From positions 62,001 through 126,000 of the forward strand of contig JAUCBJ010008798.1 in the NCBI GenBank assembly GCA_032718475.1: DNA of 64,000 nucleotides. Reading direction: 5' to 3'. The position numbers and the translations under genes were made by a program. Position 1 is the stretch's first letter, and each line of letters starts with the position of its first letter. Below the pieces are notes generated by a model. That model did no database searches and was not told the origin of the DNA. It saw nothing but the letters and a program-made list of their open reading frames with translations. Source of the stretch: Nemertoderma westbladi. Its lineage: Eukaryota; Animalia; Xenacoelomorpha. This document shows positions 2,227 to 56,859 of this stretch, one piece after another.

Positions 2227-2932
2227 CAGTGGTTAGGTAACCGCTTAGTTATTTTATACCATCTGAAGATACATGGCAAGACGGAACTTCTGAGTTTGGG
2301 GTTCGTGTGGGCCTGCGGGTTCGTTTTGCAATCAGCGAAGGGACTGAAACTTTGGACGCGGACGTGGAATCTCACAGCAAACAAGGTTAGTTGTTCTGTT
2401 GGCACCATTGTGTTTGTGGAAGCAGTAAAAAATTATCGGTTGTTTAACTGCGAAGCTGAACTCAATTTATTAGTTAGGATAGTTAGGTTTAGCCGGCCAT
2501 GGTTTTTTGAATCGCTCAAGTTAGAGAGAGAGTTAGAGAGAGTCGCAACCCGAAGATGTAGCCACGCGCTAGTGGATACATATAATATTTGAAGTTAAAA
2601 TTACGTTGATTAGAGCTATATATGCAAAATTGGAATTATTTGGGTGGCAAATTTATTCTGAATATTTTGTATTAGATTCAGAAATTATTTTGTGTCATAC
2701 CGGTATTTAATTGCTATATAATAGCTATATAATAATATTTTGTTTAAATATTGTGCTAGTATTTGCTATAACTAAACCCTATTAAATTCACAATATTGCA
2801 TTGCGAATTTATTTTGACATTTTGGACCAACTAGTTATTTGACAAATAATTTGACCGTATTTTCGGTTAAATTATAATTATATCTCGAAATTTTGCGAGA
2901 TTTTTGCCGGAAGGCAAAACATTATTTAGACT

Positions 2933-4099
2933 ATGAGTGTCTCAGACAAAGAGGCACTAGAGGACAGCTATGAGACGGCGGCTGGACCGGCGACTGACGA
3001 TAGCGTAAATATTACTGTTGACGACAATGCCGACTATGACGACGCAGCGAGCGAGGCTGACGTAAGTGAACAGGAGGACGAGACAGTGACTAGTGAGGAA
3101 GAACAACAACCTCAAGTAATAGTATTAGGATCCCCTACCACTACTGTAAGGAAGGACCGCACAGCAGCCCGGACAGAGGTGAGTGATAGGGAGGGTAGTG
3201 TAGCAGAAGCGAGGGCCCGGAGCCCGGTTTCCAGACCTGTGGGTATGGTAAGTGCCGTGGTCCCAGCGGCTGTAAGGAGTACCCGTAGTTCCCGAAATAA
3301 TCCTTCAAGTCCACCAAGTGTAAGTCAGGTAAGCGAGAGAGAACTTGACATCGCGATAAAAAAGAAACTTCGCGCGCACGCCGGACATATAACCCGGACG
3401 GCGGACAAGGTAAGGACGATGTTAGCAGACTCAGCGAACATTGGAAGGGAAGGGTTAGTAGAGATTAGAAGAGGATACAACTCAGCGTTATTCAAACAGA
3501 CGGAGGAGCTTGCAGTCCTAGCAAAGAAGGCAGTAGAGTCTCAGTCGAGCGACATGGCGACGAGGATTTACAACAGGGTTTTAGCAGCCTTGTTAGAGCA
3601 CCGCGAGTTATCGGAGCGATTCCGACGAGTTAGGACGGAGAACTGGTTGCTATGGGCATCACAAGCGCAGGCGACTCAGGTGAGTGACGCAGAGTCGAGA
3701 GATTTAGTGGAGCGAGAAGAGACGCAAGATAAGGAGGAGCGCCGTTATCAGAGGGAAGTTACTAGCTGGCTGATGCAGAGTGGAGTGGTGGTACCGGGCC
3801 AGGTGCTACCGACGACGGAGAACATCCAACAGAGAACGTTAACTCCACCCGATGACGCATCTAGAGACAGTGGCGATTACCAGGTTAGTCACGCGCGAGG
3901 GAAAGTTATATGTGCTAGATCCCTTGTTTCTCACAACTCGGCGGAAGAGAGAAGACGCCGACTAGACGAACAACAGGCGGAAGTTTTGCGTGCATCGGAA
4001 GCACGGAAGGAAGCCGAGCGGGAAAGGGAGCGAACACGTAAGTTAGACGCAAAGTTGCGAGAGTTGGAAGATAAAGGTAAGTGTAAAAGCCTTTGCTGA
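2933..4099 (+). pseudogene. Truncated Gag-like ORF (acidic N-terminus plus coiled coil), probably from a second BEL-type element, cut by the LTR at 4082
   Basis: 388-aa ORF whose last codons are read from the LTR. Its low-complexity and coiled-coil layout resembles the N-terminus of the Gag at 7579, and the upstream ATACCGGTAT motif is shared with the BEL leader. No diagnostic domain remains. Confidence 0.5.
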
Positions 4100-5318
4100 A
4101 TTGCCCCGTTATTTTTATTATTTTTTACATTAAAATACTCTGTAGTTGATTTAATAGGTGTAAGAGACCGTATTATTGCTGTATCGGTGTTTTTTAGAGG
4201 ATCTAAGAGCTATTTCCTCCGTATGTGTACTGTGGAAGGCATAGTTGATGATTCTATGGCAATTCCGTGACGCAAAAGGTGATAGCTACTCTTGAACAGT
4301 AGTTACTATGACGACGGTTAACAGCTGATATTCATACGTGTTGATTTTCTTTGTTCTACGGCGTCTCTCAGTTCAGTCAGCCAATCAGAGCATTTTTATG
4401 GCTCTTGTACAGAAATTTCCTAGAAATCACGCAATGCTTTATGTGCAGTGTTGACATTCTGTCCTGAGCCAGGTGAGAGCGGCTTGGGAATATTTTGTGC
4501 TTTTCTGTTTTAGCCTAACACTAGTAGGCTTAATTATAAGGACTATATCCGTTATCAACACTTAATATCTCACTGGCCACTGGTTAACTGGCCCATACTC
4601 AATCAACGCAACATACCTAATCTAATATACCTGTGCATACTTTTATATTGTTATACTGCTATTTACTGTCGGTTCTTCATAATATGGTTGATGAATTATT
4701 ATATTTGGAATAACGATAAATAACCCCGAAACCCAATATTCTTGATATACCGAAGGTAAGAGAGAAAGGTTACATATAACGATTGTGACTTATGTTAAAG
4801 TGGTTTGAAGTGAATCTAATGTTATCTGATAGACCCTACATGAGTCGGTCTGTGTTCCTTTTATATGTGACTAAAATCAGTGAAGATCGGCAGATTAGTG
4901 TGCAGTATTGTGCAGCATTGTGTATGAGTGAGACTGATAACGAAGCATTTCCTAAAGAATGCGCCATATATGTGAATTGTAACTAAGCCATATCGTTGTG
5001 AGTAGTTTAAGTCATAACTCTGTTTTTATAGATAGAGCGCCACGTCCTAAAGGAACTGTTAATATTCCCCGAAGGTGAATAATATTGTCAGAGATTATAT
5101 AATACTGTCAGTCGAATAATACATTAGGCTTACCTAGCAATAAGATTAAGCCGTCGAACCCAATCTCCCGGGTATATCCAGCGGGTGAATGATCGCGCAC
5201 AGATTGGTTTCGACTAGTGTAGTGAATCAAATACTTGTCAGAGGCTAAAAGTGACTTATTATCTAGAAGACATCCTAATTTGGCGGGTTAAACTGCCAAA
5301 GGTCTGAAAGCGCGAACA
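4082..5318 (+). repeat. BEL 5' LTR (1237 bp)
   Basis: TGTAAAAGCC...GCGCGAACA; direct repeat of 22034-23252. Confidence 0.95.
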
Positions 5319-5329
5319 ATAACGGATAT
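5319..5329 (+). promoter_or_regulatory. Candidate self-priming primer-binding site ATAACGGATAT
   Basis: Abuts the LTR end, lacks the TGG of tRNA PBSs, and is the exact reverse complement of LTR bases 4545-4555 (ATATCCGTTAT). Confidence 0.65.
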
Positions 5330-5685
5330 CGCTTCTTTATTGCAGTAAGCAATAAAGTTGAAAGTACCGGTCAACCGGTAAACCTGAACGGTACATCTGT
5401 AGGTCAGTAGGCCCAACTGCCAGAACCGGTACTGCTGTAGGCCCGTAGGTCCAACTGCCAGAACCGGTACTTCTGTAGGTCCGTAGGCCTAACTGTCCTA
5501 ACCGGTACTTCCCGTATAAGTACATTAGTATTATTCGATTTGATTATTGTATACCGGTAGGCTGTTTAAGAGATTAGGGACTGTACACCCCTTGTTTCTT
5601 TTGGAGCTTACTTATTTCTGTCAGTTTTATTTGTTTGTAGGCCAGTATTGAACAGAAGGCGTGTAAGCCTGATCATATTGTACAG

Positions 5686-6250
5686 ACAATTTGTAGGCTG
5701 GGCTGTTGTCTGATTGCTGTTAAGTCTGAACGGATTGCAGTGTGTGTAGATCACCTGTCCGATAAAGAACGGTTAGGAAGTAGGGGCAGCCAAAGCTGTA
5801 AGGTAAACCCCCATCTAAAGAATAAGTCGTACTACTGGGTTAGAACGCATACTACCTAATCATTTCGGAGTCTGCATGTCCTGTAGTTTATTTAGGCTTG
5901 AGAGTAGTCTGCCATCGTTTAGTCTGTACTTTGTTTGTGTAGTCTGTACAGGTAGCGTATCATATTTATTTAGATAATTTGTAGGCTGGATAGTTGTCTG
6001 GCTTGTTTATTAGGTCTGAACGGATTGCAGTGTGTGTAGAGCCTCTGTCCGATAAAGAACGGTTAGGAAGTAGGGGCAGCCAAAGCTGTAAGGTAAACCC
6101 CCATCTAAAGAATAAGTCGTACTACTGGGTTAGAACGCATACTACCTAACTATTTCGGAGTCTGCATGTCCTGTAGTTTATTTAGGCTTGATAGTAGTCT
6201 GTCAGTATTTGGTCTGCATTTTGTTTGAGTGGTTTGTACGCGTAGCGTAA
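5686..6250 (+). repeat. 290-bp tandem duplication in the BEL 5' leader
   Basis: GATAAAGAACGGTTAGG at 5761 and 6051, with a long near-identical core. Confidence 0.9.
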
Positions 6251-7578
6251 TATTTATTATTCAGAGTTTATGCGATTATTCGCAACATTCATTCCCCAAG
6301 TTTGTTCCTACAATAATTGTGTTTGTTATACATACCGCTATAGTTAAATTAACCCCGGTACTACACGGGCTGCTTGGCGTAGGTAAAGACTGGTGATTTT
6401 GTGCACCGGTCACTCCAGCAGATGCCGTGGTTCTTTTAGCTGTTCAAGTATATTTAACTACTGATTATATGTTGTACAAGTACTCGTACCTAATTTAGGG
6501 TTTAGTGTACAGTGCTTTCCGAAAGTAATTAGTGTAGACATTATATTTGTGTTGTAAAGTGGTTGATAGGCACGTTCGATTAGCTCTATTAACTTCTAGG
6601 TAGGAACACTCCGTGATACATAACGTAGTACCTATAGCGATACGGCTATAGGTCGTCAGGCGGTGGTATTTTCCTATCTGGACAACGCAGTGTATTTACT
6701 ACTACGTATTATTTTCAAATACCGCAGTACCCTGTCCGTTGTAATAACCAGAATTCTAACCCTTTGTTAGGCTGGTTTGTAGACTTCTTGTAAAATTACC
6801 CTGAAAATTCGTATTTTGTGTTTTTTGTAAATTTTTGTGTTTATTTAGAGATTGTAATCTCACCCGAATTGTACGTAATTTGTAGTATTAAGTAACTTAG
6901 GTAAATTAGCATTATTTGTTTTAGTGTCCTATAAGTAACACTTCACTGAAAGCGCACCGCTTTGTGTAGTGATTACTCCCCAGAAATAATAACATTTATT
7001 TCAAACATTGACAAAACCCATTAAAACGGGTATATATATATTATAAATCAAATCTAACGATTTATAAATAGTAGGCCTACCATACAACCATTAGGTCTCA
7101 ATATCAGTTGGATTACTGCTCAAATAACGGTAATAAAGTAAGTAAAGTAACCAAGTAACCCTAAAATTCAGAAATTCAATTATTTAAAATAATTGATATA
7201 CCGGTATTTACGATAGGCCTATTATCTTTATTTCTATAAATTTAGGCTGAAATTATACCGGTACTTGTAATTAATTCTAGTCCAGAATTATATATACTAC
7301 AAACTGTAAGCTGTATACCGGTATTCCCGATAGGCCTATTATATATTTATATATATTTGTGCTAAAATTATACCGGTATTCTGTGATAAACCTAGTCTGT
7401 AATAATACTTATATAGTTATATATACTATAAGCATACCGGTATTCTAATATATTATATATATCACGCTACACTGAGTAGCAGTATAGGTAATTAATTACT
7501 AGGCTAGCAGTTAATACTGAGTTACTAGACTTGCTCAGACTGTAATACAGCAGTAGACATTCAACTGTACACATAAAC

Positions 7579-10500
7579 ATGTCTGATACTAAGCAGAACC
7601 TGTCAGACAGTTTATTAGATGTAACTATCTGCGACTCAGATAGAGGCGTAGAACCGTCTAGTCGTAAGTTCAGTTCACCTCCCACTGTGAGGAAGGTCAT
7701 CCCTCCTGTAGTAATAACAGAACCTAGGCTGGTCCAACATCGTAGGTCTATCATAGGCACTCGAGCTCAGGTCAAGCGGGACCAAGAAGCAGCGGAACAG
7801 CAACAACCCGTGAGCCAAGAAATTATTTCTCAGCGGCCCGACAGCTCCAGTAGTGAAGATACTGTAGAACTGACACCCGAGCGCGGAGCAAGGATGACGG
7901 ATGCGGTTTATTCGGATCCCCTTCTCATCCTTCCTGCAGCCGTACTCACTAGGTTATTGATCGCTGTGGAAGAACACCAGATCGATTGGGCGAGAAGTCA
8001 ACGCTCAACTAAAGATAGTTATGCGGGATACACAAGGGAAGAACTGAAGTCCATGGTCGAGTCGCAATGGAACTTCCCCGGACCCGGACTCCCGTTTGAT
8101 TTATCAGAAGCTGCCTGGGAAGACATACACCGGATGGGAGTAGCCAAGGAAACCATCGATCCAGCTGTGTGGAAGAGGTCCGCAGCCGGATACGCACAGG
8201 GATTCTTCAGCTCTATGGAGCGAGTAGAAAAACAACTGTTACAACAACCTCAAGGACCTCAAGAGCAGGGACAACTGCTTTATCAAGTTAGAGAAAGAAT
8301 TCTGCGAATCAGGCTAATATTATCAGCCTTTGAAGAGGCTTCTAAAAGAAGACAAGACACGTCGTTGCAAGTTGCCGTAAAGACTTGGTTTCAACGGGTG
8401 AGTCGCCAGGTTCAAGGAACAGCTCAGTGGAAAGCTCAGCTGGAGGAGCGCTCAACCCATGGAGAATCAACAGACGCTACTTTTTCCCAAGTGGAAAGTG
8501 AAGCGACGGCAGAGAAACCGCATAAGAGAGATGCCATTGACATCTATCTGTCAGACTATCAACGTTTTTTAGGTGATGACGAGTTGAGGAGAAGGTTAGA
8601 TGGACTTAGCCCTAATAGCGAAGGAACTCAGCGTGTGTTGGATGCCATCGATGTGGAAATGAGGGCTGCGAATCAGGCTAAATTTGATGAACAACTCCGC
8701 CTGACACGAGTCCAAGAAGAACAAGTAAAGAAAAAACGTATAGAAGACAGAAAGAAAGCAGCAGTGGTAGCTGCAGAAGCAGAAAGAAAAGCGGCAGCGG
8801 CAGAGGCAGCGGCAGAGGCAAAAGCGGCCGAAGCTGCAAAGCAAAAGCGGCCAGCTGCAGCGGCAGCGGCAGAAGCAAAGGTGGCAGAAGCAGAACGGAG
8901 AGCGACTGAAGAAACCACCCAATTAGAATTGGAAAACATTCAGGAGAATCAAGACTGCATAAATAAACAGTTAACAGCTAGTAATATGCAGATGATGAAT
9001 CGATCTACTCCCAAAAGACAGGGATATACATCATCTGAGGAAGGCGATACCACCGATACTGAAGGCAAAGGAAATAGATCTCGTCTAAGCAGACGTAAAA
9101 GAACATTCCACCGTCAGAAATTGCCTGATTTGCCTCCAGCTGTTAGAAGGCAACTAAATAACACCAACTTAGGTAGTACAGAGCCCACAGACCAAATAAT
9201 TAAAATAGAAAGACTCCCTACTATAGTAGATGAGCCTGAAATAATTAGGCCTGTTCTTGAAATCACCCCTTCGGTGATAGACACACCTGTGCTCCCTGAA
9301 GCTACCTCTAAATTCCCTCTGCATAGCACTAAGCTACCTGTGCCCAGTAGAACTGCCCAGGAGACAGTTCAGGTCCTGGACCCCGAGCGAAATATTCATG
9401 ATTTGTCGCCCGTTGTCCCTCGTCCGCCCGCTACAACGTTGGCGACTCCCGCTTCGGCGGTCGAATGGGTGGACGAGAGACGGCGGGGGATGGATCTCCT
9501 GCTCGGGCAGATGCAGGAGACTGTTCAGCAATTCAAGGGCACAGTAAGGGAAAGTAGGCTAGAGTTGCAAGAAGTGCAGCAAAGTATCGCGCTAGAACGC
9601 GATAAATTAGTAAATACTCAAAGGGGTATACCACCACCCTCGGTAACAATGTGTCAACCTGTTAGGTCTGAAGTATCTCATGCGCAAGGTGTGGAGCCTA
9701 CACGCATATATACTGCTAGCGAAGTAGAAACTCCTATAGTGAACCCTATTAAGGGTAATTATAGACCTGTTGATAATGACATTCCCTATAGACCTGATCA
9801 TAATCCGAGAAATTTATATACCGATAACTCGATATTAAATAACACGATGGCCCAAGAAAGTTTTACGCGTCAAATGGCTAGAACCGAAGCCCGGCAAGCG
9901 GTGAAGGTGGGAGAGATCGTCAAGTTCAATGGAGATGAGATGAAATGGTTACCTTTTAATGAATATTACAAAGATAACATACAGAACTCTGTACTATCTA
10001 ATGGAGAGAAACTTAGATTCCTCATCGAGTGCTTGGAAGGATCTCCCAAGTTAATGGCGTTAAAGTTTATTGGACATCCAGACGGATTAAGACAAGTTTG
10101 GGATACACTAAACATCAGGTATGGTAATAGGAATAACATAGCTGGGTATTTGTATGCAAAGTTGGTAGCGCCCCGAAAGTTTATTAGCAACGGGATTATA
10201 GAGTTTTCCGATGAAATTCAGGAGATCTGCAGACAATTAGATTGGCTAGGTAAGTCTCATGAGTATCAGAGTGCTATGGTTATTAGAGCAGTGGCTTCTA
10301 CTTTACCGAAGGGTGGAGTAGGTACACGCTGGGACAAAAAGGTGTTATACATGATGGAACAACAACAACGAGACCCTACCATGACTGATCTCATGACATT
10401 CTTGGATGGCGAAGTGAAATTACAGCTCATAAAACAGTCCAGAGAGAAGACATCGGAAAACAAGGTAAGTGAGAAACCCGTCTCCAGAAGAAAGATAACA

Positions 10501-12178
10501 CCAGTGTGTTATACCGACGACGGCGAAAGCCAAGCTTCCCAAGAGGAGGACAGCGGGAAAGACACTGAAAGATCTTATTATGTCAATAAAACACCTAACG
10601 AACAGGGAAGTAAATTTAAGTCTCGATCCCATGACAAGAGAGAACAGGTAAGAAAAACTCCTCCTACGTCTCCCAAGAGAATTCAGGTAAGAAAGCCCGA
10701 AGAAAGAACGAGAGTGCACACTGTCACCCAAAATAAGGTAAGTAACATCAAACCGAAATGTGCGCTATGTGACGGGACCCACCGTTTGAATATGTGTGAT
10801 GAATTCCTGAAGAAATCATTAACGGAGAGACGAGAAGTCATGTGGGATAAGCGGTTATGTTATAATTGCCTCAGACAAGGACACCAACGGCGAACCTGTT
10901 ACTCTGACATAAGGTGTGCAAAGTGTGGTGCGAAACATCATATCTTGTTGCACGCTGAATTCGAGCGAAATAGTCCGAATCAGGTAAGTGATTCCGAACT
11001 ACATGTCCAATTCAGTGATGTGAACGACACTGATCAATCTGAGATGGAAGGATTCTATACGGACGAGTTCTCCGACGAAAACGAATCCTGTTACATGATA
11101 AATACCGCAGTGTATCGAGCACTCACATATGAAAAAGATACGGACAGCGACCTCACTCTAACTACTTCTGATCGACAACCATCGTGGAAAGCACCAACTT
11201 CCGATGTAGGAATCCGAGAATTTCCTGTAGTCCAGTTACGGGTCCATGGACCTCAGAAGAGCTATATAGTGAACGCCCTCCTGGACTCCGGTAGTACAGG
11301 AACATTCATCGACAAAGAGCTAGCCGAAGACATATTTGCTGGACAACCCAAGTTCCGAACTAAGCTAAACATGTCCGGCATTATGCAAGTTTGGAAATCT
11401 ACATTAACAGCGGATTATTATGTAGGCGCGTTGTCCACCCCCCAGGACGAACTAGGAGAACATAGCATAAGGTCAGTGAAAATGGTGGCTATAAAGAACT
11501 TCGCTACTACTCAAGCAGACCTTTATAATTGGGACGAGGATGAGAGCATCCAACATCTTAACATACCTCGATTCCAGACTGATTATCCTGGAGTGCAAAT
11601 ACTCATCGGCCAAAACGCGCATGAGGCGCTCGAGACATTGGAGAAACGGCCTGCTCAACCGCAGCCACTACATGAACGCCCTCCTGGACTCCGGTAGTAC
11701 AGGAACATTAATCGACAAAGAGCTAGCCGAAGACATATTTGCTGGACAACCCAAGTTCCGAACTAAGCTAAACATGTCCGGCATTATGCAAGTTTGGAAA
11801 TCTACATTAACAGCGGATTATTATGTAGGCGCGTTGTCCACCCCCCAGGACGAACTAGGAGAACATAGCATAAGGTCAGTGAAAATGGTGGCTATAAAGA
11901 ACTTCGCTACTACTCAAGCAGACCTTTATAATTGGGACGAGGATGAGAGCATCCAACATCTTAAGATACCTCGATTCCAGACTGATTATCCTGGAGTGCA
12001 AATACTCATCGGCCAAAACGCGCATGAGGCGCTGGAGACATTAGAGAAACGGCCTGCTCAACCGCAGCCACTACAGACCTATGCGGTAAGAACTAGAGTA
12101 GGTTGGTACTTTACTGGCCCTTCCCGTAGAACACTCAGAGAAAGACTACCGCAAGAGCAGCGTCTGCCAGGTGAGTGA
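7579..12178 (+). CDS. gag: BEL Gag-aspartic protease, frameshifted by a 403-bp tandem duplication of the protease region
   Basis: Pao-type Gag core (KFNGDEMKW...EKLRFLIECLEG); knuckles CALCDGTHRLNMC, CYNCLRQGHQRRTC and CAKCGAKHHILLH; protease ALLDSGS. ORFs 7579-11697 and 11540-12178 become one frame when one duplicate is removed. Confidence 0.9.
11270..12075 (+). repeat. Tandem duplication, 2 x 403 bp, covering the protease core
   Basis: Copies 11270-11672 and 11673-12075, with about four substitutions seen between them. Confidence 0.95.
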
Positions 12179-12237
12179 ATGGGAAGATGATACTAGTGAG
12201 GGAGACGATTTAACTGAGGGAACCCCATACTCCTCAG
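12171..12237 (+). other. Candidate 67-nt spliceosomal intron between protease and RT
   Basis: CAG|GTGAGT donor, TTTAAC branch-like motif at 12209-12214, CCCCATACTCCTCAG acceptor. Removal deletes the TGA at 12176-12178 and fuses Gag-PR in frame with Pol. Confidence 0.6.
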
Positions 12238-15200
12238 ATAACGACGACGTTCACCAGCTTTTTGATGAGGAGAATACCATCGATCTCCTTAAGGAAAACG
12301 AGGCTTGGCAAAACCAAGTGAACTTATGTCAACTTCTTTATCCATCTGAACGAGAAGCTTATAACGACGAGCTAAATGACGTCATTGAGCGTTGTAATGC
12401 CAAGACTCGAGATGAACATGCCGTACGATTCTTTACGCAAGAGGCGGTAGAGCCCAATTCCTACGATAAAGCCTTATCGGTGGAAGAGGAAAGGGCCAAG
12501 CAGATCCAAGAGACAACTACACGTTTCCTCAAAGATCAAGGTAGGTATGAAGTCGGTCTACCTTTCCGCAAGAGAGAACCGAAGTTCATCAATAACAGAC
12601 CCTTGGCGGAAAAAAGAATCGCGCAACTCCATCGACGCCTTACGGCTAATTCTTCAGCTAAAGAAATGTATCAAACACAGCTGGAGAAATTTATTAGTAA
12701 GGGATACGCGGAGAGAGTACCGGAAGAAACACCTGTGACTGAAAGAACGTATTACTTAACTCACCATTACGTTCCTAAACCCGGTAAACCACATGAAGTG
12801 AGAGTAGTGTTTGATGGCTCCGCTCTTTACATGGGTCAATCCCTTAACTCTGAATTGTTACCCGGACCCAACTTACTTCAATCTTTGTTGGGAATTCTTT
12901 TAAGATTGAGACAATATTCGATTGCTTTCGCCTCCGATATAGAAGGCATGTTCTTACAAGTCAAGGTGTTAGATAGGGATCGAGATAGTCTACGATTTCT
13001 GTGGTGGCCCGAAGGAGACCTCAACCAGAAACCGGTGGAGTACTGGATGACCATCCAGGCCTTTGGGATAATCTCAAGCCCTTCCAACGCCTGTTCGGTA
13101 GTGCGTACCACTGCAGAGGACAACCGAGAGGCATTCTCTAAGGAAGTGATCGACAACATCAAGCGAGACATATACATGGACGATAATCTGAAGTCCCTCC
13201 CATCAGTTGAGGAAGCCATTGAGGTCGCTAAAGGAACGGTAGAGTGCTTAAAAAGAGGTGGGTTTCGATTAACGAAATTCACCAGCAACTCCCGTGAGTT
13301 TCTGGAGTCGATCCCTGCGGAAGATCGAGGGGCGAAAGATCTAGATTTGATCAAAGATGATCTGCCAGAAACCAAGACACTCGGCTTGAAATGGGACACA
13401 GAGCGAGATATCCTGTTTTTCCAGCTAAAACAGCGAGATAATCCAGTTCGAACCAAACGGATTTGCTTAAGTATACTGAGCACTTATTTCGATCCATTGG
13501 GATTTATTAGCCCAGTTATATTGATTGCTCGTAGTTTGGTACAACAAATGTGGCTTGAAAACCACTCATGGGACGATCCACTTAAGGGAGAATTATTAAA
13601 GAAGTGGATGAAATGGGAAGATTCTCTGCCGGCTATCGAGGATTTTATAATTTCCCGTTCATATTTTGGTCATGTTCTCCCTACGTATTCCTATCAACTC
13701 CATGTGTTTGGAGACGCCAGCGATATGGGAATAGGTATAGTAGCCTATCTAAGAGTGGAAACTCCGGATGGAATCAAAGTCGCCTTGGTTACTTCTAAGG
13801 CATTAATCAACAACAAGTTGAAAGTTCCTCGAGCGGAGTTAAAAGCGGCTCTATACGCTACAGCCATCGGCCGGAATGTAACAGAACAGATTGACTATCC
13901 ATTAGAGAAAACTGTCTATTGGACCGACGCTTTACTCGTGTTAGAGTATATAACCAATGAAGTCTGTCAGTTCAGCGTCTTCGTTACCAACAGAGTAGCC
14001 ATCATACTTAGTCGCACGACGATGGACCAATGGAGACATTGCCCCGGAACGATTAATCCAGCAGACATCGCTTCCCGAGGAGCGACTCCAAAGGAATTGG
14101 TAAATACTCCCGAATGGTTAGGTGGACCCGACTTTCTCTACAGAGAAGAAGAAGAATGGCCTCCCCATCTCACAACAGCAGAGATCAGACAGGCCAAGGG
14201 AGCGGAGAAAGTTAAACCCAAAACTCGAGCGAGTAAATCGAAGTTGTTTAAACCTGCGGTTGATCTATCTGTATTATTTACTTCCGGAGAGGATGCTTTG
14301 GATCAGAAACCCACCGCCACGACTAAAGAAGTCTTGGAAATCCGTGACAAGGATTGGAAATCTGGAATACCAGATATCGCGCAAGGACTCTCACCCCTCT
14401 TGCAGAGAGCGATACGTCACTACAGTTCCTGGAATCGGCTCTGTAAAGCCGTCACCTATTTAAAACGATGTTTTCATCATCGTTACTCCGGGACAAAGAC
14501 CAATAGTGATGATGCTCCATCAACATCTGCACGAGTCCATGTTGTTAAAGATCTTCCCAAATACAAGATATCCGACAGGTTTCTAAAGGAGAAGATCAGT
14601 TACCAGGAGCATGATGAAACCAACAAACAGATGCTGAGACTCCTACAATGCTATGAGGATCCCGATAAGTATTTCCTGTTGTTAAGAAATCCGCAGATGC
14701 GCTTAAGGGATCGCTTCTCTAGTACCATGATAGATGGGTTAATACGTGTTGGAGGCAGGCTTACCAACGCCCCATTATCCTTTGACACTAAGTTTCCCAT
14801 ACTCATTAGAAATCTTGACATACAAATCAAGATGATTGTAGATGTTCATAGCAAACTGTATCATGCTGGAAGAGAACGAGTTCTGAGCGAAATTCGAACT
14901 CGCTACTATTTTTATAAACCCCGTAGGGCTCTGAACCAAGTCCTTAGGAACTGCATACCCTGTAGGAAAGCATTCAGTAGGCCTTTGACACAGCGAGAGG
15001 CAGAATTACCTAGGGAAAGAGTAAGCTTCTATGAACCACCCTTTACTAATACCGGTGTGGATTTATTTGGCCCTATTGAAGTATATCGTGCCCGGACTAT
15101 AGTCAAGAGATGGTGTGTCATCTTCGTTTGTATGACTTGTAGAGCTATCCATCTCGATATGGTAAACGATCTATCCACCAACAGCTTCGTGTTGAGTTTA

Positions 15201-16058
15201 CGACGACAGATCGCTCGCTTCGGAACCAGTAACACGATGAGATCGGATAAGGGAACGAACTTCATTGGCGCCAACAACGAAATTCAAGCTTACGTAAAGG
15301 ACTGGAACAAAAGACAGGTGGACGATCAGCTAAAGATAACAGCGTCTAGCTGGACCTTCAACGCCGCCGACGCCCCTTGGTGGGGAGGAAGTTGGGAGAG
15401 ATTGATTAGGAGCGTGAAGACTGCGTTCCACTTTATTGTACCTTGTCGCGCTTATCTCACCGACGAACTATTGCGGACGTTAATGGAGGAAATCGCCGCC
15501 TATCTCAACGAAAGACCGCTTATGCCAGTCTCTTCAAGTCCTGATTCCCTGGAAGCGCTAACACCCGCGCACTTTCTACTGAAGAAACCCGTAGCCATGC
15601 TCCCACGATCGGAGATCACAGACGGAGACGAGTACTGCCGTCGAACCTGGCAACTTATGCAGTTGCTATCCCGTCGTTTCGCTGACCATTTCGAGAAACA
15701 TTACCTGCCCACTCTACAACTTCGAACTAAGTGGTTTGCGCAGCAAGAAAACGTCAGCGCTGGAGACATGGTGCTTATTGTGGACCCCGATCTCCCACGT
15801 AAGCGATGGCAAACAGGACGTATCATCGAGACTCATATCTCGAGCGATGGTTTGGTGCGATCAGTAGAACTCGTCGTCATGCGGCGTAACTTTAAGAAAC
15901 CAGGGATAGTCTTTGAGACTCAACAGCTCAACCGCCCAGTGGGTCGTTTATGTTTACTGGAAAGAGACAGAGAGCTCTCCGGAAACTATGGAAGGCAAGA
16001 AACTCTTCCCACGACCACTTCCCTAATCCAACCCACATCTAGGGACTCCCCAACTTAA
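12171..16058 (+). CDS. pol: BEL Pol: reverse transcriptase, RNase H, integrase
   Basis: RT RVVFDGS and YMDD; RNase H LHVFGDAS and YWTDA; integrase HHCC (HSKLYH...CIPC), GVDLFGP, SDKGTNF and GGSWERLI. The GTG start is probably not a real initiator. Confidence 0.95.
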   Translation: MSEWEDDTSEGDDLTEGTPYSSDNDDVHQLFDEENTIDLLKENEAWQNQVNLCQLLYPSEREAYNDELNDVIERCNAKTRDEHAVRFFTQEAVEPNSYDKALSVEEERAKQIQETTTRFLKDQGRYEVGLPFRKREPKFINNRPLAEKRIAQLHRRLTANSSAKEMYQTQLEKFISKGYAERVPEETPVTERTYYLTHHYVPKPGKPHEVRVVFDGSALYMGQSLNSELLPGPNLLQSLLGILLRLRQYSIAFASDIEGMFLQVKVLDRDRDSLRFLWWPEGDLNQKPVEYWMTIQAFGIISSPSNACSVVRTTAEDNREAFSKEVIDNIKRDIYMDDNLKSLPSVEEAIEVAKGTVECLKRGGFRLTKFTSNSREFLESIPAEDRGAKDLDLIKDDLPETKTLGLKWDTERDILFFQLKQRDNPVRTKRICLSILSTYFDPLGFISPVILIARSLVQQMWLENHSWDDPLKGELLKKWMKWEDSLPAIEDFIISRSYFGHVLPTYSYQLHVFGDASDMGIGIVAYLRVETPDGIKVALVTSKALINNKLKVPRAELKAALYATAIGRNVTEQIDYPLEKTVYWTDALLVLEYITNEVCQFSVFVTNRVAIILSRTTMDQWRHCPGTINPADIASRGATPKELVNTPEWLGGPDFLYREEEEWPPHLTTAEIRQAKGAEKVKPKTRASKSKLFKPAVDLSVLFTSGEDALDQKPTATTKEVLEIRDKDWKSGIPDIAQGLSPLLQRAIRHYSSWNRLCKAVTYLKRCFHHRYSGTKTNSDDAPSTSARVHVVKDLPKYKISDRFLKEKISYQEHDETNKQMLRLLQCYEDPDKYFLLLRNPQMRLRDRFSSTMIDGLIRVGGRLTNAPLSFDTKFPILIRNLDIQIKMIVDVHSKLYHAGRERVLSEIRTRYYFYKPRRALNQVLRNCIPCRKAFSRPLTQREAELPRERVSFYEPPFTNTGVDLFGPIEVYRARTIVKRWCVIFVCMTCRAIHLDMVNDLSTNSFVLSLRRQIARFGTSNTMRSDKGTNFIGANNEIQAYVKDWNKRQVDDQLKITASSWTFNAADAPWWGGSWERLIRSVKTAFHFIVPCRAYLTDELLRTLMEEIAAYLNERPLMPVSSSPDSLEALTPAHFLLKKPVAMLPRSEITDGDEYCRRTWQLMQLLSRRFADHFEKHYLPTLQLRTKWFAQQENVSAGDMVLIVDPDLPRKRWQTGRIIETHISSDGLVRSVELVVMRRNFKKPGIVFETQQLNRPVGRLCLLERDRELSGNYGRQETLPTTTSLIQPTSRDSPT

Positions 16059-17708
16059 TATCGTTCGGAGTGGGCGTGTGACTCTATTATTTTATATTAT
16101 TTTATTATTTTTATATTTATGTATGTATTACTATGTAATTTTATTATAATCGTTTTATTTAATTTAGTAGAATATTATTTAGCGATTATTTAGTAGAATA
16201 GTGCAATATATTCGTGTTTATTGCGTACGTAATTACTTATATTATATTTAGTGTGACGGTGAGAAACAAGTGTTTTTCTCTTTCCTTACTGTCCGTATTA
16301 TATTATAAATACGTAACTACAGTAAGATGAAATGTCCGTACTTATTAAAGTACAATAAAGCCACTACTATATTCAAGTATTATTGGTAGGCAGAGTATTA
16401 GGAATGCAAAGTTCAGATCCTCGTGTCTCGGCTAAACCAAGCTCTGGGTAGACCTTGGAAACGACTTGCCTCTTCACACTGACATTGCTTCGTGCGATAT
16501 TGCTCTCATACCGTATATTAAATAATACATATAGTAGCGTGATGTCCCTTTAACAGTAGCGTATAACGCAAAATAAATCTGTTAAACCCTTTGACCATCT
16601 GTAATTCTAGTCGATTAAGATATCGCGGCACCCACCGATATACTTGAAAGACAAATTCTAGAATCAGTGGTTAACGTCCCCAGACAAGTTCTGGAATAAA
16701 TCGGTGCCCATCTCAAATATTAATTATTTAATATTTGCAAATCCAATAAATCAAAATCTGTAAATTCAGATCCTTCAACAATTCTAGTCAATTAAGATAT
16801 CGTAACATTTACCGATATTCTTAAAAGGACAATTTTCATAGAATTAAGGATCTTGTGTCCCCAGACATGTTCTAGAATCAAAATATGTCCATTTAATTAT
16901 CAAATAATAAAATTTCAGGGAATAAATTTAAATTCATGCCTTTTAATGAATTTAATAAATTGCCATTTTTACGCAATTTATAACATTCCCAAAATTCCAT
17001 TAATTAATAGATCAAGGGAGCGGAGATTTATCTTATTATGCGTATGAGTGTGCGAAAGTCTCCCAAACATAGTCAATAGCCGATAAAATTCATAAAGTCA
17101 TGTATCAAACAGGACATTGACTATTAAAGAATTACTATTAAATAACATCCCAGATCTGTATGCATGGGAATTACCCTAATTCTACCGCTAGCTTTACATA
17201 ATGTCACCATAGCAACAACCACGCTAGAATTAGAATTGAGTTAAAAGAACAATAGAAAGCTTGTCCCATTGAATAGCATAGGGAATAAATAGCGCACTGC
17301 TAGTATCCAAGGATACATAATAATACAGTGACATTCTGGAAGGCATTGACTAACGGACAAATGGCCCGAATGTGCGTAGTTGTGACCAGTTGTGTGGTAT
17401 TTGTGAGTTTATAGGTGAATGTTACTGCTAAAGTGTGTTTACAGTAGCTAGTCGCAATCGTGAAAGTAACCTAACTCTCCAAGGAAAACCTGAAGTACAT
17501 CTAAGCCTTTGGGACGGACAGTGGAGTGACTTGTGCCGGTTATCGTTGTCGTTGTACGGCTACGTCGTTGGCGAAAGTACAGCGACAGCGGTACATCGGC
17601 GCTGAGAATCTCACACTGTCCGGGGGCAAGGGAGAAGTAGGCAGCGACGCCCGCTCGCCTAATAAATATATAAACTCATTATAATATTGGTGAACTCGTA
17701 TAGCAGAT

Positions 17709-20700
17709 ATGACTGAATTAATAGAAGATGATCTTGGTATCAGGGAGAGATATACTCTACCTTTACAAGCGTTTGTCGATAGCTTGATACGCGGCGACGC
17801 TGATCCAACTACTACGGAGGACGATGGTCGTTATATCGAACCGCCAATGTCCCAGGAGCAACTTACGCGTGAATTGGACTATAGAAAATTCACTGCTCGC
17901 TATACGCATCGTAATGGTACGTATATGGACTTCCTGACTACTGGTCATCCTATTGATTTACACGACACCGACGATGTCGACACCGAAAGGGAAATGGTTT
18001 TATTTAAATATCATACCCAGCGGAGTCGAAACGACAAATCGAGAATAGAACACGAGAACTCTATTCGAAATAAACTCGAAAGAGAAGACGTTGAAGAACC
18101 TGATAAACGTAGCGGCTTCAACGAATATCTAGAATTCCTAAGAGAGACCTATCTCAATGTTGCTAGTCAACAAAACCTCGAAACTCGATATCCTCAAGGT
18201 ATACATCCAGATCCTATGATGGAACTCAAACGGCTCTATTTTACGATGATGTATCTTACCGCCGATCGACCACTACCTGTCGTTCCAGATAGCTTCGAAC
18301 AGATGGAGGAATATTGTAAAACTGGAGAGCGATCACCCGCGTTTCCCCTTCAAGACGTGCGTCTTTGGTATTACTGTGACGAATGCCCTAGACCTAACCA
18401 GCAAATCGAAAGGCATAAACATCCGCGGAGACGTTGCGCTAAACACAGTTTTACGCGATATACTTATGGGAGTTTCGAGCGAAACCTTTTCGACGTATCA
18501 CCTACGGTCGCGCGCCTTAAACGATCATTGAATAAACCCATGATCAGAGTTCCGGAATACTCGGTCAGACCTCCTCATTCCCAAGTGATACCTCAAACTC
18601 TCGATCCTAATAGTATTACGGATCCTCCCGAGCTGTACTCACTGTTCAAAGATCTAGTGTTACCTGAACAGTTGATTGGTGGCACTCCGGTAGTGGGTTC
18701 GTTAGATATTCGCCAACCTTACCTCGCTGGACTAGGACGCGGTCATCTAATATCACCGTTTAACCCCTACAACCGTCCTGGCCTCCCTCCGATCCAACCT
18801 GTTACAGAAGTCGAAGAGAGCGTGATACGAAATGCATTGGACGCTATTCGGCAGAAAATCGGAAAAGGAACTTACGATTGCTTGGAGAAACGTAAATTGC
18901 AACAACAAGTCCAAGCGGTGAAAGAACTAGCTTTACCCCAGTTCGATAGAGAAATACAAAATCTAGAGGAGGACATCGAACGTGGACGAACCTACTCCTT
19001 ACAGGAATTCCTGGACGAGCGCTTGCAACAACAAGCGGAGGAAAATCAGCTCGAGGAGAGACATATAGAGCTGACTGAGAGGGAAGAAGCTGCTTTAGCC
19101 CAACCAGAAACTCAAATTCTCGTGACGGATCTCTATTCCAAAACGATCCTCCACCCCTCGATGGTTCCTCATTTTAAAGACAAGCTCTTTGCTACGGTAC
19201 AGCCTCAACCGGTTAATACCGATCTCAGATCTCAAGAACTCATTGCTGACGCTCCTATGATACAACGTCCACCCATCGCGGCTGCTCGTGTCGATGGTGT
19301 ACTTGTTGAGCCTCCGGACAATAGAGCGGATCTTGTCCGTCGCATGGTACACGATGTTAACATACGCGCTAGACCTTTGCCGGACTCATTTTATGGAATT
19401 AAGGATCATCCTTATTACGTCAATTTAAAGCAATATTACATGGTAAAACCGGAAGATCCTACGCATAGTCTGAGGTTTCTACCATTAATCAATCCTCTCG
19501 ACCTTGTCGAACTCGAACAACTACAAAAACATCTAGATCAGCTAGTTAAACTAAACTCATTTCGAAAACCGTATAATATTTCCAGAATAGAGAAAGAAAT
19601 ATTACCTCCGTACAATCTTGATGGATTCATTAAAACTCGATTAGTGCACTGGAATCTTGACGTGTTATTCGAGGAAGAAAGAATAAAACGATATGGAGAT
19701 GTGGAAACCTATACTACACAATGCTTAAAGTATAGAGATTTACCCAATGCTAGCGAATGCGCTACTTTGTGGCATCCAGTGGGAATGACTCTCGAAAACG
19801 CCACTAAAGAATGGAACGAGACTCTTAACGTTATCGAGATGTATGGCGTTGTTACTTATGACAACGAAGGTAGCGTTCTGGTGGGAGAACTAGGAACTAC
19901 GCGAATGATACATATACGAGGACTCGCTGGTTCTACCCACGTATTCACTCGAGCGTGTTCCGACGTGATTGATTATTCTTTTGAAACCCTTACGGAGACA
20001 CAAAAGAAACTTCGACATGGACAATTCGAGCTCGCGCAGCGTTACGTCACCGACACCGAGCGCAAACCGGCCATGGGTATCGATGGATCAATGTTACCCC
20101 AACCTGTGCTCGAAATGTTGTTTAACGAAAGAATCCTAAAAATCGGCTCAGCTGTTTATGGAGATCTCCAAAACGACTTCCGGAATATGGAAAACATTCC
20201 ATACCCTTTCGTTGATACTCAGCTGATTGCTCCTTGGGCCGAAGGCCGAGGTTTCTTTCGCACTATGTATGCCAATACACCCAGCGACATTACTAAGGTA
20301 CAACGGACATCCATCGGACATCTTGCCTTTCAAGAATATGGATGGAATTTCAAAGTTGGAAATCCTACCAATTACCAGCAAGTATATGGAGATCATTACT
20401 CTCGTTTATATTTTGATGGACCATTAACTGCGCCTGGTGCCGTATATAGCTTTATGAGTGTTCCACTTCGCCCTTCCTTAGCTATATACATGATCTTTGA
20501 AAACGCAGCACTTGCCGGTTGGCTAGCCGATGTGTGCAGTCGTACCATACGCGCTCACCCATTAATACTTGGAACTAAACTCGCCAAGTTAGACGAACAC
20601 AATAAGTTCATACGTTTCGAATGTTTCCGGCGCTTTCTGACTCCGTTCCGTAACGTCGATAGTCAGTTCAAGGACCGCGCGCTGACCAAACTCAGTCTGA

Positions 20701-21737
20701 GAGACTCAGCTGCGGAGAAACTGAGTAGCGCTGGATTTGCCGTTTTTCAAGACGTTTGTATACAGAACTTACATTCATCTGTTATACAAAGACCCCGAAT
20801 ACCTACAGGTTATTCTGTCGTGGAAATACAGACAGTGGATCCACTTACTGAGACAGACGCACCCACTTCGTCTATACATCTGGAAGATGAACCAGTATGC
20901 TTGGAATCAGAAGCGATTCAGCCTACAGCTTCCCGGAGCAGTGACAATGATTATGTCATAGAGTGGTATCAAGGTCCACAACGTCTCACAGCGTACGATT
21001 ATAGACACGCCAACTACGTTTCTCGAAAACGTTGTCGATTATGCGCATCGAGAGACCACTTCACCCCTCTAGACTCGAGCGTACCTTGTTCCTATTTCCT
21101 TGAACAACCGATGATGGAAATATATTGTGCTTATTGCCGGCTTAATAACTCTCATATTTTTGCCGTCTGCCCACAATTTATGACTCAATGTCATTACTGT
21201 CAACTTAAAGGACATGAAAGTTACAATTGTCCCTTTAATCGCGATTTAGAGAGTGTAGACGAGATGATCACCCTGCGATACATCCGAGCTTGGGAAGCGA
21301 ACGCGGATTTACATTGCGAATCCCGACATCGCTATTACCCTGGACGAGCTTACGAGGGAGTTTACGCGTTCCATCCTTATCTATTCGCGTCAATTGAACA
21401 GAAAACACGCGTACCAAGTTACGAGTTAATGAAGCGTGTTGGTGAGTGTATTTCCACCAAGTTTGTCAGAAAATACCTTAGAAACGTTAACCCTAATGAT
21501 ATAACCACATATCACCTGATCAATTTTATCCGTCAGGACCCTGAGTATGGCGACATCTTTGTGAACTCGCATCCTGAACTACAGGAAGTATCTCGGCGAC
21601 CATATGAATATCGAACCCGAGAACGCGAGCTGGAGAGAACCATTAAACCGAGAAAGTTCCTCACCACTCACGGTCCACCCACCGCTAGTGTCCAGACGAC
21701 CCGTCAAGGACCCGTAGGAGCTGCTGTCCTGTTCTAA
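17709..21737 (+). CDS. BEL ORF3, 1342 aa: putative DEDDy (RNase D/WRN/MUT-7-like) 3'-5' exonuclease with C-terminal CCHC zinc knuckles
   Basis: Intact ORF inside the LTRs. ExoI-like VVTYDNEG (~19848-19871); ExoII-like LPQPVLEMLFNERILKIGSAVYGD, then FVDTQLIA and SIGHLA...GWNFK; ExoIII-like PLRPSLAIYMIFE (~20462-20501). Knuckles CRLCASRDH, CAYCRLNNSHIFAVC and CHYCQLKGHESYNC. Confidence 0.7.
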   Translation: MTELIEDDLGIRERYTLPLQAFVDSLIRGDADPTTTEDDGRYIEPPMSQEQLTRELDYRKFTARYTHRNGTYMDFLTTGHPIDLHDTDDVDTEREMVLFKYHTQRSRNDKSRIEHENSIRNKLEREDVEEPDKRSGFNEYLEFLRETYLNVASQQNLETRYPQGIHPDPMMELKRLYFTMMYLTADRPLPVVPDSFEQMEEYCKTGERSPAFPLQDVRLWYYCDECPRPNQQIERHKHPRRRCAKHSFTRYTYGSFERNLFDVSPTVARLKRSLNKPMIRVPEYSVRPPHSQVIPQTLDPNSITDPPELYSLFKDLVLPEQLIGGTPVVGSLDIRQPYLAGLGRGHLISPFNPYNRPGLPPIQPVTEVEESVIRNALDAIRQKIGKGTYDCLEKRKLQQQVQAVKELALPQFDREIQNLEEDIERGRTYSLQEFLDERLQQQAEENQLEERHIELTEREEAALAQPETQILVTDLYSKTILHPSMVPHFKDKLFATVQPQPVNTDLRSQELIADAPMIQRPPIAAARVDGVLVEPPDNRADLVRRMVHDVNIRARPLPDSFYGIKDHPYYVNLKQYYMVKPEDPTHSLRFLPLINPLDLVELEQLQKHLDQLVKLNSFRKPYNISRIEKEILPPYNLDGFIKTRLVHWNLDVLFEEERIKRYGDVETYTTQCLKYRDLPNASECATLWHPVGMTLENATKEWNETLNVIEMYGVVTYDNEGSVLVGELGTTRMIHIRGLAGSTHVFTRACSDVIDYSFETLTETQKKLRHGQFELAQRYVTDTERKPAMGIDGSMLPQPVLEMLFNERILKIGSAVYGDLQNDFRNMENIPYPFVDTQLIAPWAEGRGFFRTMYANTPSDITKVQRTSIGHLAFQEYGWNFKVGNPTNYQQVYGDHYSRLYFDGPLTAPGAVYSFMSVPLRPSLAIYMIFENAALAGWLADVCSRTIRAHPLILGTKLAKLDEHNKFIRFECFRRFLTPFRNVDSQFKDRALTKLSLRDSAAEKLSSAGFAVFQDVCIQNLHSSVIQRPRIPTGYSVVEIQTVDPLTETDAPTSSIHLEDEPVCLESEAIQPTASRSSDNDYVIEWYQGPQRLTAYDYRHANYVSRKRCRLCASRDHFTPLDSSVPCSYFLEQPMMEIYCAYCRLNNSHIFAVCPQFMTQCHYCQLKGHESYNCPFNRDLESVDEMITLRYIRAWEANADLHCESRHRYYPGRAYEGVYAFHPYLFASIEQKTRVPSYELMKRVGECISTKFVRKYLRNVNPNDITTYHLINFIRQDPEYGDIFVNSHPELQEVSRRPYEYRTRERELERTIKPRKFLTTHGPPTASVQTTRQGPVGAAVLF

Positions 21738-22033
21738 AGGCCGTTAGACCTCGCTCCACTGAGGTTGATATTAATCAACCAGGTACTTCGACCGGCGGGT
21801 ATACCGATCGTAACCCTACACCTTCTGATGCAATTGTATTGCACCCTTCGCCTAGGAGCTACAGCCCTCCTCGTAAAGTGGCTCGCCCCAAAGAGAAAAG
21901 GACTCTTGCTAGCCTCAAGAAACTGCGTAAACGCCGTCCGCGTAAGAAAGACTAACTGTTTAGAGTATCTTTAGGTTTTAGAAACTGTGATTTTTATATT
22001 TTATAGACTGAAAATCCCATTTTCTGGGAGCGG

Positions 22034-23252
22034 TGTAAAAGCCTTTGCTGAATTGCCCCGTTATTTTTATTATTTTTACATTAAAATACTCTGTAGTTGA
22101 TTTAATAGGTGTAAGAGACCGTATTATTGCTGTATCGGTGTTTTTTGGAGGATCTAAGAGCTATTTCCTCCGTATGTGTACTGTGGAAGGCATAGTTGAT
22201 GATTCTATGGCAATTCCGTGACGCAAAAGGTGATAGCTACTCTTGAACAGTAGTTACTATGACGACGGTTAACAGCTGATATTCATACGTGTTGATTTTC
22301 TTTGTTCTACGGCGTCTCTCAGTTCAGTCAGCCAATCAGAGCATTTTTATGGCTCTTGTACAGAAATTTCCTAGAAATCACGCAATGCTTTATGTGCAGT
22401 GTTTACATTCTGTCCTGAGCCAGGAGAGAGCGGCTTGGGAATATTTTGTGCTTTTCTGTTTTAGCCTAACACTAGTAGGCTTAATTATAAGGACATATAT
22501 CCGTTATCAAACAAACAACTGCAAACTGGACTCACTCACTGACTTAATATCTCACTGGTTATCTCACTGCATTTATCTTACTTAACATTACTGCTTTGCT
22601 GTCGGTTAATCATTATATTTGTTGATGAATTATTATATTTGGAATAACGATAAATAACCCCGAAACCCAATATTCTTGATATACAGAAGGTAAGAGAGAC
22701 AGGTTACATATAACGATTGTGACTTATGTTAAAGTGGTTTGAAGTGAACCTAATGTTATTTGATAGACCCTACATGAGTCGGTCTGTGTTCTTTTTATAT
22801 GTGACTAAAATCAGTGAAGATCGGCAGATTAGTGTGCAGTATTGTGCAGCATTGTGTATGAGTGAGACTGATAACGAAGCATTTCCTAAAGAATGCGCCA
22901 TATATGTGAATTATAACTAAGCCATATCGTTGTGAGTAGTTTAAGTCATAACTCTGTTTTTATAGATAGAGCGCCACATCCTAAAGGAACTGTTAATATT
23001 CCCCGAAGGTGAATAATATTGTCAGAGATTATATAATACTGTCAGTCGAATAATACATTAGGCTTACCTAGCAATAAGATTAAGCCGTCGAACCCAATCT
23101 CCCGGGTATATCCAGCGGGTGAATGATCGCGCACAGATTGGTTTCGACTAGTGTAGTGAATCAAATACTTGTCATAGGCTAAAAGTGACTTATTATCTAG
23201 AAGACATCCTAATTTGGCGGGTTAAACTGCCAAAGGTCTGAAAGCGTGAACA
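22034..23252 (+). repeat. BEL 3' LTR (1219 bp)
   Basis: TGTAAAAGCC...GCGTGAACA. Differs from the 5' LTR by roughly a dozen point changes plus a poorly aligning block at ~22510-22620. Confidence 0.95.
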
Positions 23253-26040: not shown

Positions 26041-26444
26041 TACTGCTGTAATGGGTTGTTATATTACAGTATTATTATTATTTACCGGCAGACCGGTACG
26101 TCTCCAAAATACAGCACAGCCACAGCAGTCAAATTACAGAATAATTAATGTGTAGGTAGGGCCTACCGAAACAGTACAGCACAGGCTGACACGGCAGGGC
26201 TGCAGTGAAGTGAATGCACTGAAAGTTCCGGACTTGGTATGTAGCTCAAAGATACTGCACTGCATACCGGTACCGCACCTCACACATGTCTGCAGGTCTG
26301 CCCGCTCTATAGGCTAATGAATCTGAATGAAATCTTGAAACTCTTGATGAATCTGTACCAGTACCAGTGATAACAGGATAACCTCAAATGGACGGTGTTA
26401 TGCAAAAGGGTGTTAAGCCACAAAAGTTCAATTTGAGATAATCG

Positions 26445-52064: not shown

Positions 52065-52260
52065 AGTGAGTGCGAAACAAAACTTAATCAGGTGAATTTA
52101 CCAAAAGAAAATGATTCTTCTGGTTCAGATATATTAATATTTCAATAAAAAAACATTAATCAAAGTTAAATTAATTTAATACTTCAATTAGGCCTACAAA
52201 TTTTGAATTATAAGGTCGTCAGTCGTCTAGTCTGTATGTATACCTATACCGGTAGCGGCA

Positions 52261-56700: not shown

Positions 56701-56859
56701 CATGCATGGTATCTGGCTGTCAGACTGTCTGGCATCCACCAGTCCAGTCTTACCACAGTCTGACAGTACCAGTTAGGAACACTGGTCACTTTCTGGCTGG
56801 AGCTCAGCCACAAATTATCCACATATGCATATTTACAGCCAGAAAGTGTCCATGCAACC

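Follow-up and report, generated by a model that had tools for sequence, protein, structure and literature searches.

The window, by which we mean the whole 64,000-nucleotide stretch analysed here, contains a BEL/Pao long terminal repeat (LTR) element of 19.2 kb (positions 4082-23252) with the following features:

4082-5318, forward strand: 5' LTR of 1237 bp, TGT...ACA, aligned to the 3' LTR.
4535-4540, forward strand: putative TATA-like word TATAAG, from a motif list, 10 nt upstream of the next feature.
4545-4555, forward strand: predicted self-primer segment, an exact complement of the bases behind the LTR; 12-13 bp (from 4543 or 4544) pair with the commoner post-LTR form.
4556-4680, forward strand: hypervariable patch, beginning directly behind the predicted primer 3' end, with short duplications in the 3' LTR copy.
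4756-5031, forward strand: intron-like stretch in the LTR, from a motif list, with a GAAG/GTAAGA donor and a pyrimidine-rich TAG acceptor.
5319-5329, forward strand: primer-binding-site position, without TGG; polymorphic within the family at 5319 and 5323 (each about half of the depth) and at 5330.
5330-5345, forward strand: acceptor-like stretch (pyrimidines, then CAG) directly behind the post-LTR site, read from the sequence.
7546-11697, forward strand: gag-protease frame with DUF1759, a triple Cys-His box and ALLDSGS.
12102-16058, forward strand: pol frame with reverse transcriptase (RT; YMDD), RNase H (Peptidase_A17, DAS), integrase D(61)D(49)E and DUF5641.
17694-21737, forward strand: extra 1347-aa frame without a Pfam family, located between pol and the 3' LTR.
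22026-22033, forward strand: short purine-rich tract (GGGAGCGG) preceding the 3' LTR and resembling the tracts of related elements.
22034-23252, forward strand: 3' LTR of 1219 bp, TGT...ACA, carrying the 11-base word of the primer segment at 22497-22507.

The assignment to BEL/Pao follows from the Pao-type RT, RNase H, integrase and gag domains in the order PR-RT-RH-IN (Pfam E values of 6e-36 for Peptidase_A17, 8e-20 for DUF5641 and 2e-10 for DUF1759), the three Cys-His boxes in Gag and the widened spacing of the integrase DDE triad, whereas a Pfam match to a chromodomain, as in the Pol of Ty3/gypsy chromoviruses, is absent. The best protein matches are about 34-41% identical, the named ones coming from sea urchins, amphioxus and fish; no named reference BEL/Pao element is among them, and the likeness to Sinbad and Sailor discussed below comes from motifs only. 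The pol reading frame differs from that of gag, and the copy in the window is broken: the gag-protease frame stops inside a tandem duplication whose units (11270/11673) are spaced 403 bp apart, and there are two frame changes between gag and pol. No target-site duplication surrounds the two LTRs (GTAAG on one side, TCCAC on the other), a property of this particular copy; because, in addition, the flanks are unrelated, the 5' and 3' LTRs probably derive from different insertions. On the left, the 5' LTR cuts a gag-like frame of 389 aa (2930-4099), the leader of which shares CCGGTAT words with that of the main element; for this upstream element, no LTR end and no complement longer than 9 nt were found. 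The right flank is a decayed frame on the opposite strand, which we take to resemble a non-LTR element.

The extra frame contains two weak CCHC-like motifs (zinc knuckles) and has no Pfam, PDB or near-length homologue, and an alignment-free fold prediction was useless (pLDDT 32). The one distant relative of this protein, P0125 (30% identity, E 2e-8), shows, in the shared part, a weak match to a 3'-5' exonuclease (Pfam E 0.2) along with a zinc knuckle, so that the frame possibly includes an exonuclease-like part, a weak indication that we put forward with due caution. Elsewhere in the window, there is a gypsy element (30111-37534) with one 1798-aa frame, 803-bp LTRs (30111-30913 and 36732-37534) and a 4-bp duplication; because TGG directly follows its LTR, tRNA-type sites do occur in the host of the window. 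Other occupants are an uninterrupted Sir2-family frame (24136-26058, reverse strand) that ends in many 27-bp (9-aa) tandem repeats, an uninterrupted ANTH/ENTH-domain frame in a stretch of 60% GC (49908-52097, reverse strand) and two long fold-back structures whose inverted arms are themselves repetitive (54113-56710 and 58810-63634). No tRNA or Rfam RNA was found in the 64-kb window.

The feature of principal interest is the complementarity between the first bases behind the 5' LTR (5319-5329) and a segment inside that LTR (4545-4555). As the initial annotation had observed, the complement is exact, starts at the very first post-LTR base and is not accompanied by TGG, and our analysis bears this out: the 11-base word occurs exactly three times in the window, at 4545 (forward), 5319 (reverse) and 22497 (forward), and the 18-nt site for a host tRNA 3' end given in the ICTV profile is missing. 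What is found instead is the arrangement of the Tf1/sushi group, a post-LTR site complementary to the element's own LTR without a tRNA site. A chance match of this length is rare, as had been estimated (about 3e-4), with a computed range of 2e-4 to 9e-4: a match of 11 nt to the window LTR is attained at 4 of the 16,685 internal positions (2.4e-4) and, within 26000-64000, at 33 of 37,971 (8.7e-4), and the Markov expectation is 8.5e-4, or 1.6e-3 with offsets of 0-3 allowed. The presence of the 11-base word in the 3' LTR, which had also been cited in support, is confirmed but carries little weight because the whole upstream part of the LTR is near-identical between the two copies (up to 4555, 5 of 475 columns differ). 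The informative part of the LTR comparison is the onset of divergence just behind the word, with 62 of 127 columns differing in 4556-4680, followed by 12 of 639 beyond; this patch is likely to be the site of the first strand transfer. A 7-bp extension of the helix (4536-4542 with 5334-5340), although predicted, is not above random and was set aside.

The element family is highly repeated and variable, and the variation among sister copies could be read from contigs of four sequencing runs (X1, X3 and X4 among them), in which depth sums do not equal copy numbers. Within 5270-5380, four changes reach 1% of contig depth: 5319 A>T (56% of depth in X1, 44% in X3), 5323 C>A (55% and 56%), 5330 C>A (89% and 81%) and 5339 A>G (4% and 2%); the changes at 5319, 5323 and 5330 appear to occur together in an X4 contig that has three differences. 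With the prevalent A, position 5330 also pairs with 4544; LTRs of the 5' type gain a further pair between 5331 and 4543, and an inserted base behind 4543 (35% in X1, 38% in X3) caps the other copies at 12 pairs. Hence, the pairing of exactly 11 bp noted originally holds for the window copy but not for most copies of the family, in which 12-13 bp pair. The changes at 5319 and 5323, which face 4555 and 4551, would break 2 of the 11 pairs with a window-type segment and thus speak against the pairing, the partner sites of those same copies lying outside the view of the contigs. Contig depth drops several-fold over 4399-4569 and more than a hundred-fold at 4570-4626 (3,432 in X1, compared with 97,497 and 586,649 alongside), and one X4 contig skips 4405-4650, with other letters in between. 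Two rare variants are an LTR form with a change at 4550 (X1 and X3) and a post-LTR form with a change at the base opposite, 5324, and another mismatch at 5326, the latter form occurring in a single contig of each of X1, X3 and X4; these two unphased forms may represent a compensatory pair.

The window copy alone is a modest witness, and it is the clade to which it belongs that constitutes the finding. We collected 98 loci with a related Pol, 79 from metagenomes and 19 (L080-L098) from prokaryote assemblies, namely, metagenome-assembled genomes and a Wolbachia chromosome; several of the latter BEL/Pao elements have both LTRs and, being likely host DNA, probably represent animal sequence in prokaryote bins. 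No relatives were found in viral contigs, where two pattern matches proved unrelated. A repeat surrounds pol in 37 of the 98 loci, and 17 of these were counted as loci with a defined LTR 3' end, L020 and L084 being excluded because the repeat ends inside the LTR or is not an LTR. TGG lies within 8 nt of the LTR end in 8 of the 17 and is absent in 9. A contiguous complement of the locus's own LTR is at most 8 nt long in all 17; in four of these, the best short match lies directly behind an acceptor AG. When predicted GT-AG junctions inside the LTR were considered, six of the nine loci without TGG showed a post-LTR match of 10-15 nt to such a junction (P 0.008-0.033, against 120 internal positions per locus), and the donor was GTAAG in all six even though the search required GT only. 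None of the eight TGG loci showed such a match, the longest among them being 7 nt. The remaining three loci without TGG fit post hoc, L010 with 11 nt if the LTR end is set at TATA, L068 with 12 nt at offset 4, and L086 with 10 of 11 as judged by eye. The LTRs of L010, L064 and L068, all of the junction type, end in TATA rather than CA.

A blind scan of 75 loci, the other 23 having less than 1.9 kb upstream of pol, recovered a junction match of at least 11 nt in 17 loci, compared with none of 75 in a mirror control, several of the 17 being sister copies and two (L020 and L022) having the match at a distance of 53 nt behind the LTR end. A blind scan for contiguous matches gave no enrichment among the relatives (17/75 vs 13/75), which is a point against our preferred reading of the window element given below. 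With one locus per family, an own-LTR match of at least 10 nt is present in 15 of 17 loci without TGG (the LTR end having been picked with the match in view in 10 of the 17) and in none of 7 TGG loci, while pairings of the same length with foreign LTRs number 5 in 600, two of these between sister families. In all families tested, the match begins at an offset of 0-4 nt behind the LTR end. The post-LTR sites differ between families, each matching the RNA of its own LTR, and this amounts to co-variation across the clade, the kind of matched change that the initial annotation had suggested looking for.

A further case is a pair of loci, L064 and L067, that are 90% identical over 7,122 columns. 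L064, which has a frame of 2,024 codons, lacks exactly the 168-nt LTR intron of L067, and as a result, its complement is a contiguous 11 nt. Whether L064 is genomic or cDNA, the exact loss of the intron implies that the predicted splice sites are used, and L064 is a natural precedent for the contiguous arrangement in the window. It is also the sole spliced form recovered: that of the other 17 of 18 junctions is absent from the 100 loci searched. Post-LTR sites that are complementary to a junction which the DNA itself lacks are most simply made by copying the RNA primer. The window element likely belongs with these junction-type loci: in a 55-row RT tree, it groups with all 18 of them and with no TGG locus (support 83/95, not starred), although its branch is long (1.7), which weakens the placement, and a 24-row tree gives the same split with support of 86. 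Together, the own-LTR matches of the relatives and the grouping of the window RT with them lend support to the original suggestion that this BEL lineage primes itself.

These observations bear on two explanations that dispense with self-priming. According to one, the match in the window copy is fortuitous, and the family uses a host RNA, such as a tRNA half or another small RNA, or has its primer site elsewhere. Events with a frequency of 1e-3 are indeed to be expected when very many LTR elements are scanned, about half of the copies mismatch the segment of the window, and Copia-type priming from the anticodon loop, without TGG, is known (in the available portions of PMC10886601 and PMC6317226). 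Yet, with a fixed host primer, the site would be reset in each cycle, whereas the site is about 50% polymorphic at two positions, and the sites of the relatives vary by family and match their own LTR RNA; we therefore regard this explanation as distinctly improbable. The other explanation, that the pairing is selected as an RNA switch governing packaging, splicing or translation while something else serves as the primer, strikes us as very unlikely. In its favour, the post-LTR site adjoins the acceptor-like stretch ending at 5345, so that pairing could mask splicing, and the junction matches of L020 and L022 behind the LTR end point to long-range pairings away from the primer position; however, the distance of 0-4 nt from the LTR end in all tested families is the geometry of a primer site, and the matches are confined to loci without TGG. 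Splicing into the acceptor-like stretch would, as far as can be judged from the motifs, take the post-LTR site out of the mRNA. The L020 and L022 matches (2371-2388 and 2295-2312, respectively), each the second one in its locus and 13 nt long, correspond to the junction left by a predicted 159-nt intron whose end lies just ahead of the purine tract, and might conceivably reflect a splice-dependent pairing of the two ends of the RNA.

If self-priming is the more plausible interpretation, the question becomes where the primer lies in the RNA. The initial annotation had placed the RNA start near 4545 and, following Tf1 to the letter, taken the first 11 nt, cut off the transcript, as the primer. 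This scheme is consistent with the location of Tf1-type self-primers at the RNA 5' end (bioRxiv 2022.12.06.519325, in its accessible part), with the pairing of exactly 11 bp in the window copy, and with the predicted folding of a transcript from 4545, which forms the helix with a probability of about 0.88. Several lines of evidence run counter to it, however, leaving the proposed start unsupported and the strict scheme quite unlikely. Apart from the longer pairing in most copies, the sole TATA-like word lies only 10 nt upstream of 4545 rather than about 30, and the helix is equally good or better for 5' ends at 4500, 4525, 4530 and 4535. In 800-nt folds, which are unreliable at this length, its predicted probability is 0.8-0.97 for 5' ends at 4500, 4525-4535, 4543 and 4545, lower for 4514 and 4540, and lost for 4474 or upstream and for 4548 or downstream; its loss for 4474 or upstream, like the ordinary energy of the duplex (16 of 60 random 24-mers are equally strong), counts against our preferred reading. 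A second duplex of the 'pretzel' kind is not clear; the LTR end and the sequence that follows the primer form weak candidates only (-11.0 and -6.7 kcal/mol). In the relatives, the pairing segment is split by an intron, and just 2 of 18 have a TATA-like word in the 75 nt that precede the donor. In any case, all that priming needs is a free 3' end, so it can do without a start at 4545.

In the window LTR itself, TATAAG at 4535 would suggest a start at about 4563, downstream of the segment and hence unfavourable to a 5' LTR primer, whereas a CCAAT word at 4381, from the motif list, would suggest a start further upstream; no poly(A) hexamer was found behind the segment in this LTR, again an unfavourable sign. 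By contrast, 10 of 18 relatives have a poly(A) hexamer in the 90 nt that follow the predicted primer end, and none of the 18 has one ahead of the donor; this leaves room for strand transfer and, combined with the scarcity of TATA-like words, makes it more likely that the primer is an internal segment of the RNA. The same hexamers bear on another scheme, in which the RNA starts at about 4563 and the primer is supplied in trans or by the opposite end, with the 3' LTR copy or a separate short RNA being cut or trimmed at 22507 to prime the post-LTR site. The position of TATAAG agrees with it, as do the variable patch, which would equally fit strong-stop DNA ending at 4556, and the weak exonuclease resemblance of the extra frame through its one homologue. 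Still, the RNA of the relatives likely runs past the primer end, their short elements leave no room for a long extra frame, and a spliced 3' copy serving as the template would delete the intron, contrary to the near-complete absence of spliced junctions noted above; we consider this scheme unlikely. Taken in a broad sense that embraces the preferred reading, the strict Tf1 scheme and this one, self-priming is quite probable.

The evidence tips slightly towards our preferred reading, namely, that the window element primes reverse transcription with its own segment 4545-4555, as an intron-less form of the splice-built primer predicted for its relatives. The genomic RNA would start somewhere upstream of 4545, and the segment in the 5' LTR would fold onto 5319-5331. 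The RNase H domain that is present in the pol of the window, and whose cutting is a prediction, would then, by analogy with Tf1, cleave behind 4555 and free a 3' end, from which RT would copy the LTR from 5318 back to 4556, where the strong-stop DNA would end. The minus strand would jump to the 3' LTR at 4556 and onward, with slips at this point potentially explaining the hypervariable patch, and plus-strand synthesis would copy the primer into the post-LTR site of the next generation, an arrangement that would keep both sites matched during drift. In the relatives, the 5' copy would be spent as the primer, such that the intron would be inherited from the unspliced 3' copy, and a spliced 3' copy would yield elements of the L064 or window type. 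The fact that variation starts behind the predicted primer end both in the window and in the L020/L022/L024 family, where it takes the form of short tandem duplications, fits this mechanism; four other families show no such variation, a point on the opposite side, although their near-identical copies are uninformative.

At the level of the clade, it seems fairly probable that a widespread aquatic group of BEL/Pao elements swapped tRNA priming for a self-primer assembled by the host spliceosome. A bolder version, in which the clade made this switch and the window family is caught between the two states, with about half of the copies using a spliced primer and the rest, like the window, an unspliced one, appears rather unlikely to us. 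It draws on a candidate spliced primer in which 4550 is joined to 5006 across a 455-nt GT-AG stretch: a GT lies at 4551-4552, and the AG at 5004-5005 is followed by five bases that pair with copies carrying the 5319 and 5323 changes; those copies may, for this reason, use the spliced form. The donor at 4551 is weak, lacking the GTRAG of the relatives, the acceptor lacks a pyrimidine tract, and our estimate from base counts puts the probability of meeting a 5-base match of this kind at any of 46 AG sites at about 0.14. For the site of the window copy itself, no spliced match with GTRAG donors was found, nor one to the junction of the intron-like stretch at 4756-5031, and a 10-nt spliced match with a bare GT donor and a poor acceptor was set aside.

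Should the splice-built primer prove real, transposition of these elements would be tied to host splicing, and the failure of tRNA-based annotation to find a primer site in them would be explained. The window family adds the intron-less state to this picture, and L064 and L067 show the conversion of one state into the other. Literature searches found no paper on self-priming or a splice-built primer in BEL/Pao elements and no counterpart of the latter, although subscription papers, supplements, Repbase or GyDB may note missing primer sites. The word 'PBS' is absent, by word search, from the accessible text of surveys covering BEL/Pao (PMC554778, PMC3118150, PMC6238403, PMC2996953), and the available parts of PMC3601003, PMC8220671, PMC6934838 and PMC10886601 add nothing on BEL/Pao priming.

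Among known systems, the window element resembles other BEL/Pao elements (Belpaoviridae) in its TG...CA LTRs and, within these, elements of the Sinbad/Sailor type in the triple Cys-His box, ALLDSGS, YMDD, DAS and DD(49)E (PMC554778, in part). The ICTV profile describes BEL/Pao as tRNA-primed, with an 18-nt site for tRNA-Arg or tRNA-Gly and a length of 4.2-10 kb, and their replication as 'poorly understood' (PMC8742986), in contrast to the window element with its 19.2 kb, 1347-aa extra frame and lack of TGG. Because this element and 9 of 17 relatives are BEL/Pao by sequence and yet lack TGG, the tRNA-site statement does not cover their clade. The C. elegans element Cer7 is said to have been proposed to encode a tRNA-like primer of its own, and the Tf1 primer is reported to be freed by an RNase H cut. 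Tf1, Tf2 and Tj1, members of the Tf1/sushi group of Ty3/gypsy chromoviruses, share with the window the absence of a tRNA site and the post-LTR complement of their own LTR (PMC4600332; bioRxiv 2022.12.06.519325; both in the portions available), but the window element differs in belonging to the BEL/Pao superfamily, in a loop of about 760 nt, in a primer that is probably not at the RNA 5' end and in the lack of clear 'pretzel' duplexes, and its relatives differ in their intron-split segment. The plant elements Tcn1 (gypsy) and TAR (copia) likewise have a complement of at least 10 bp starting 0-5 bp after the LTR, as predicted from sequence, but belong to other superfamilies, with no splice-built primer described in the accessible part of the source (PMC6317226); these predictions imply that self-priming arose more than once. 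BEL/Pao being one of the main groups of animal LTR elements, a self-primed clade within it would, if genuine, represent an independent origin of tRNA-free priming.
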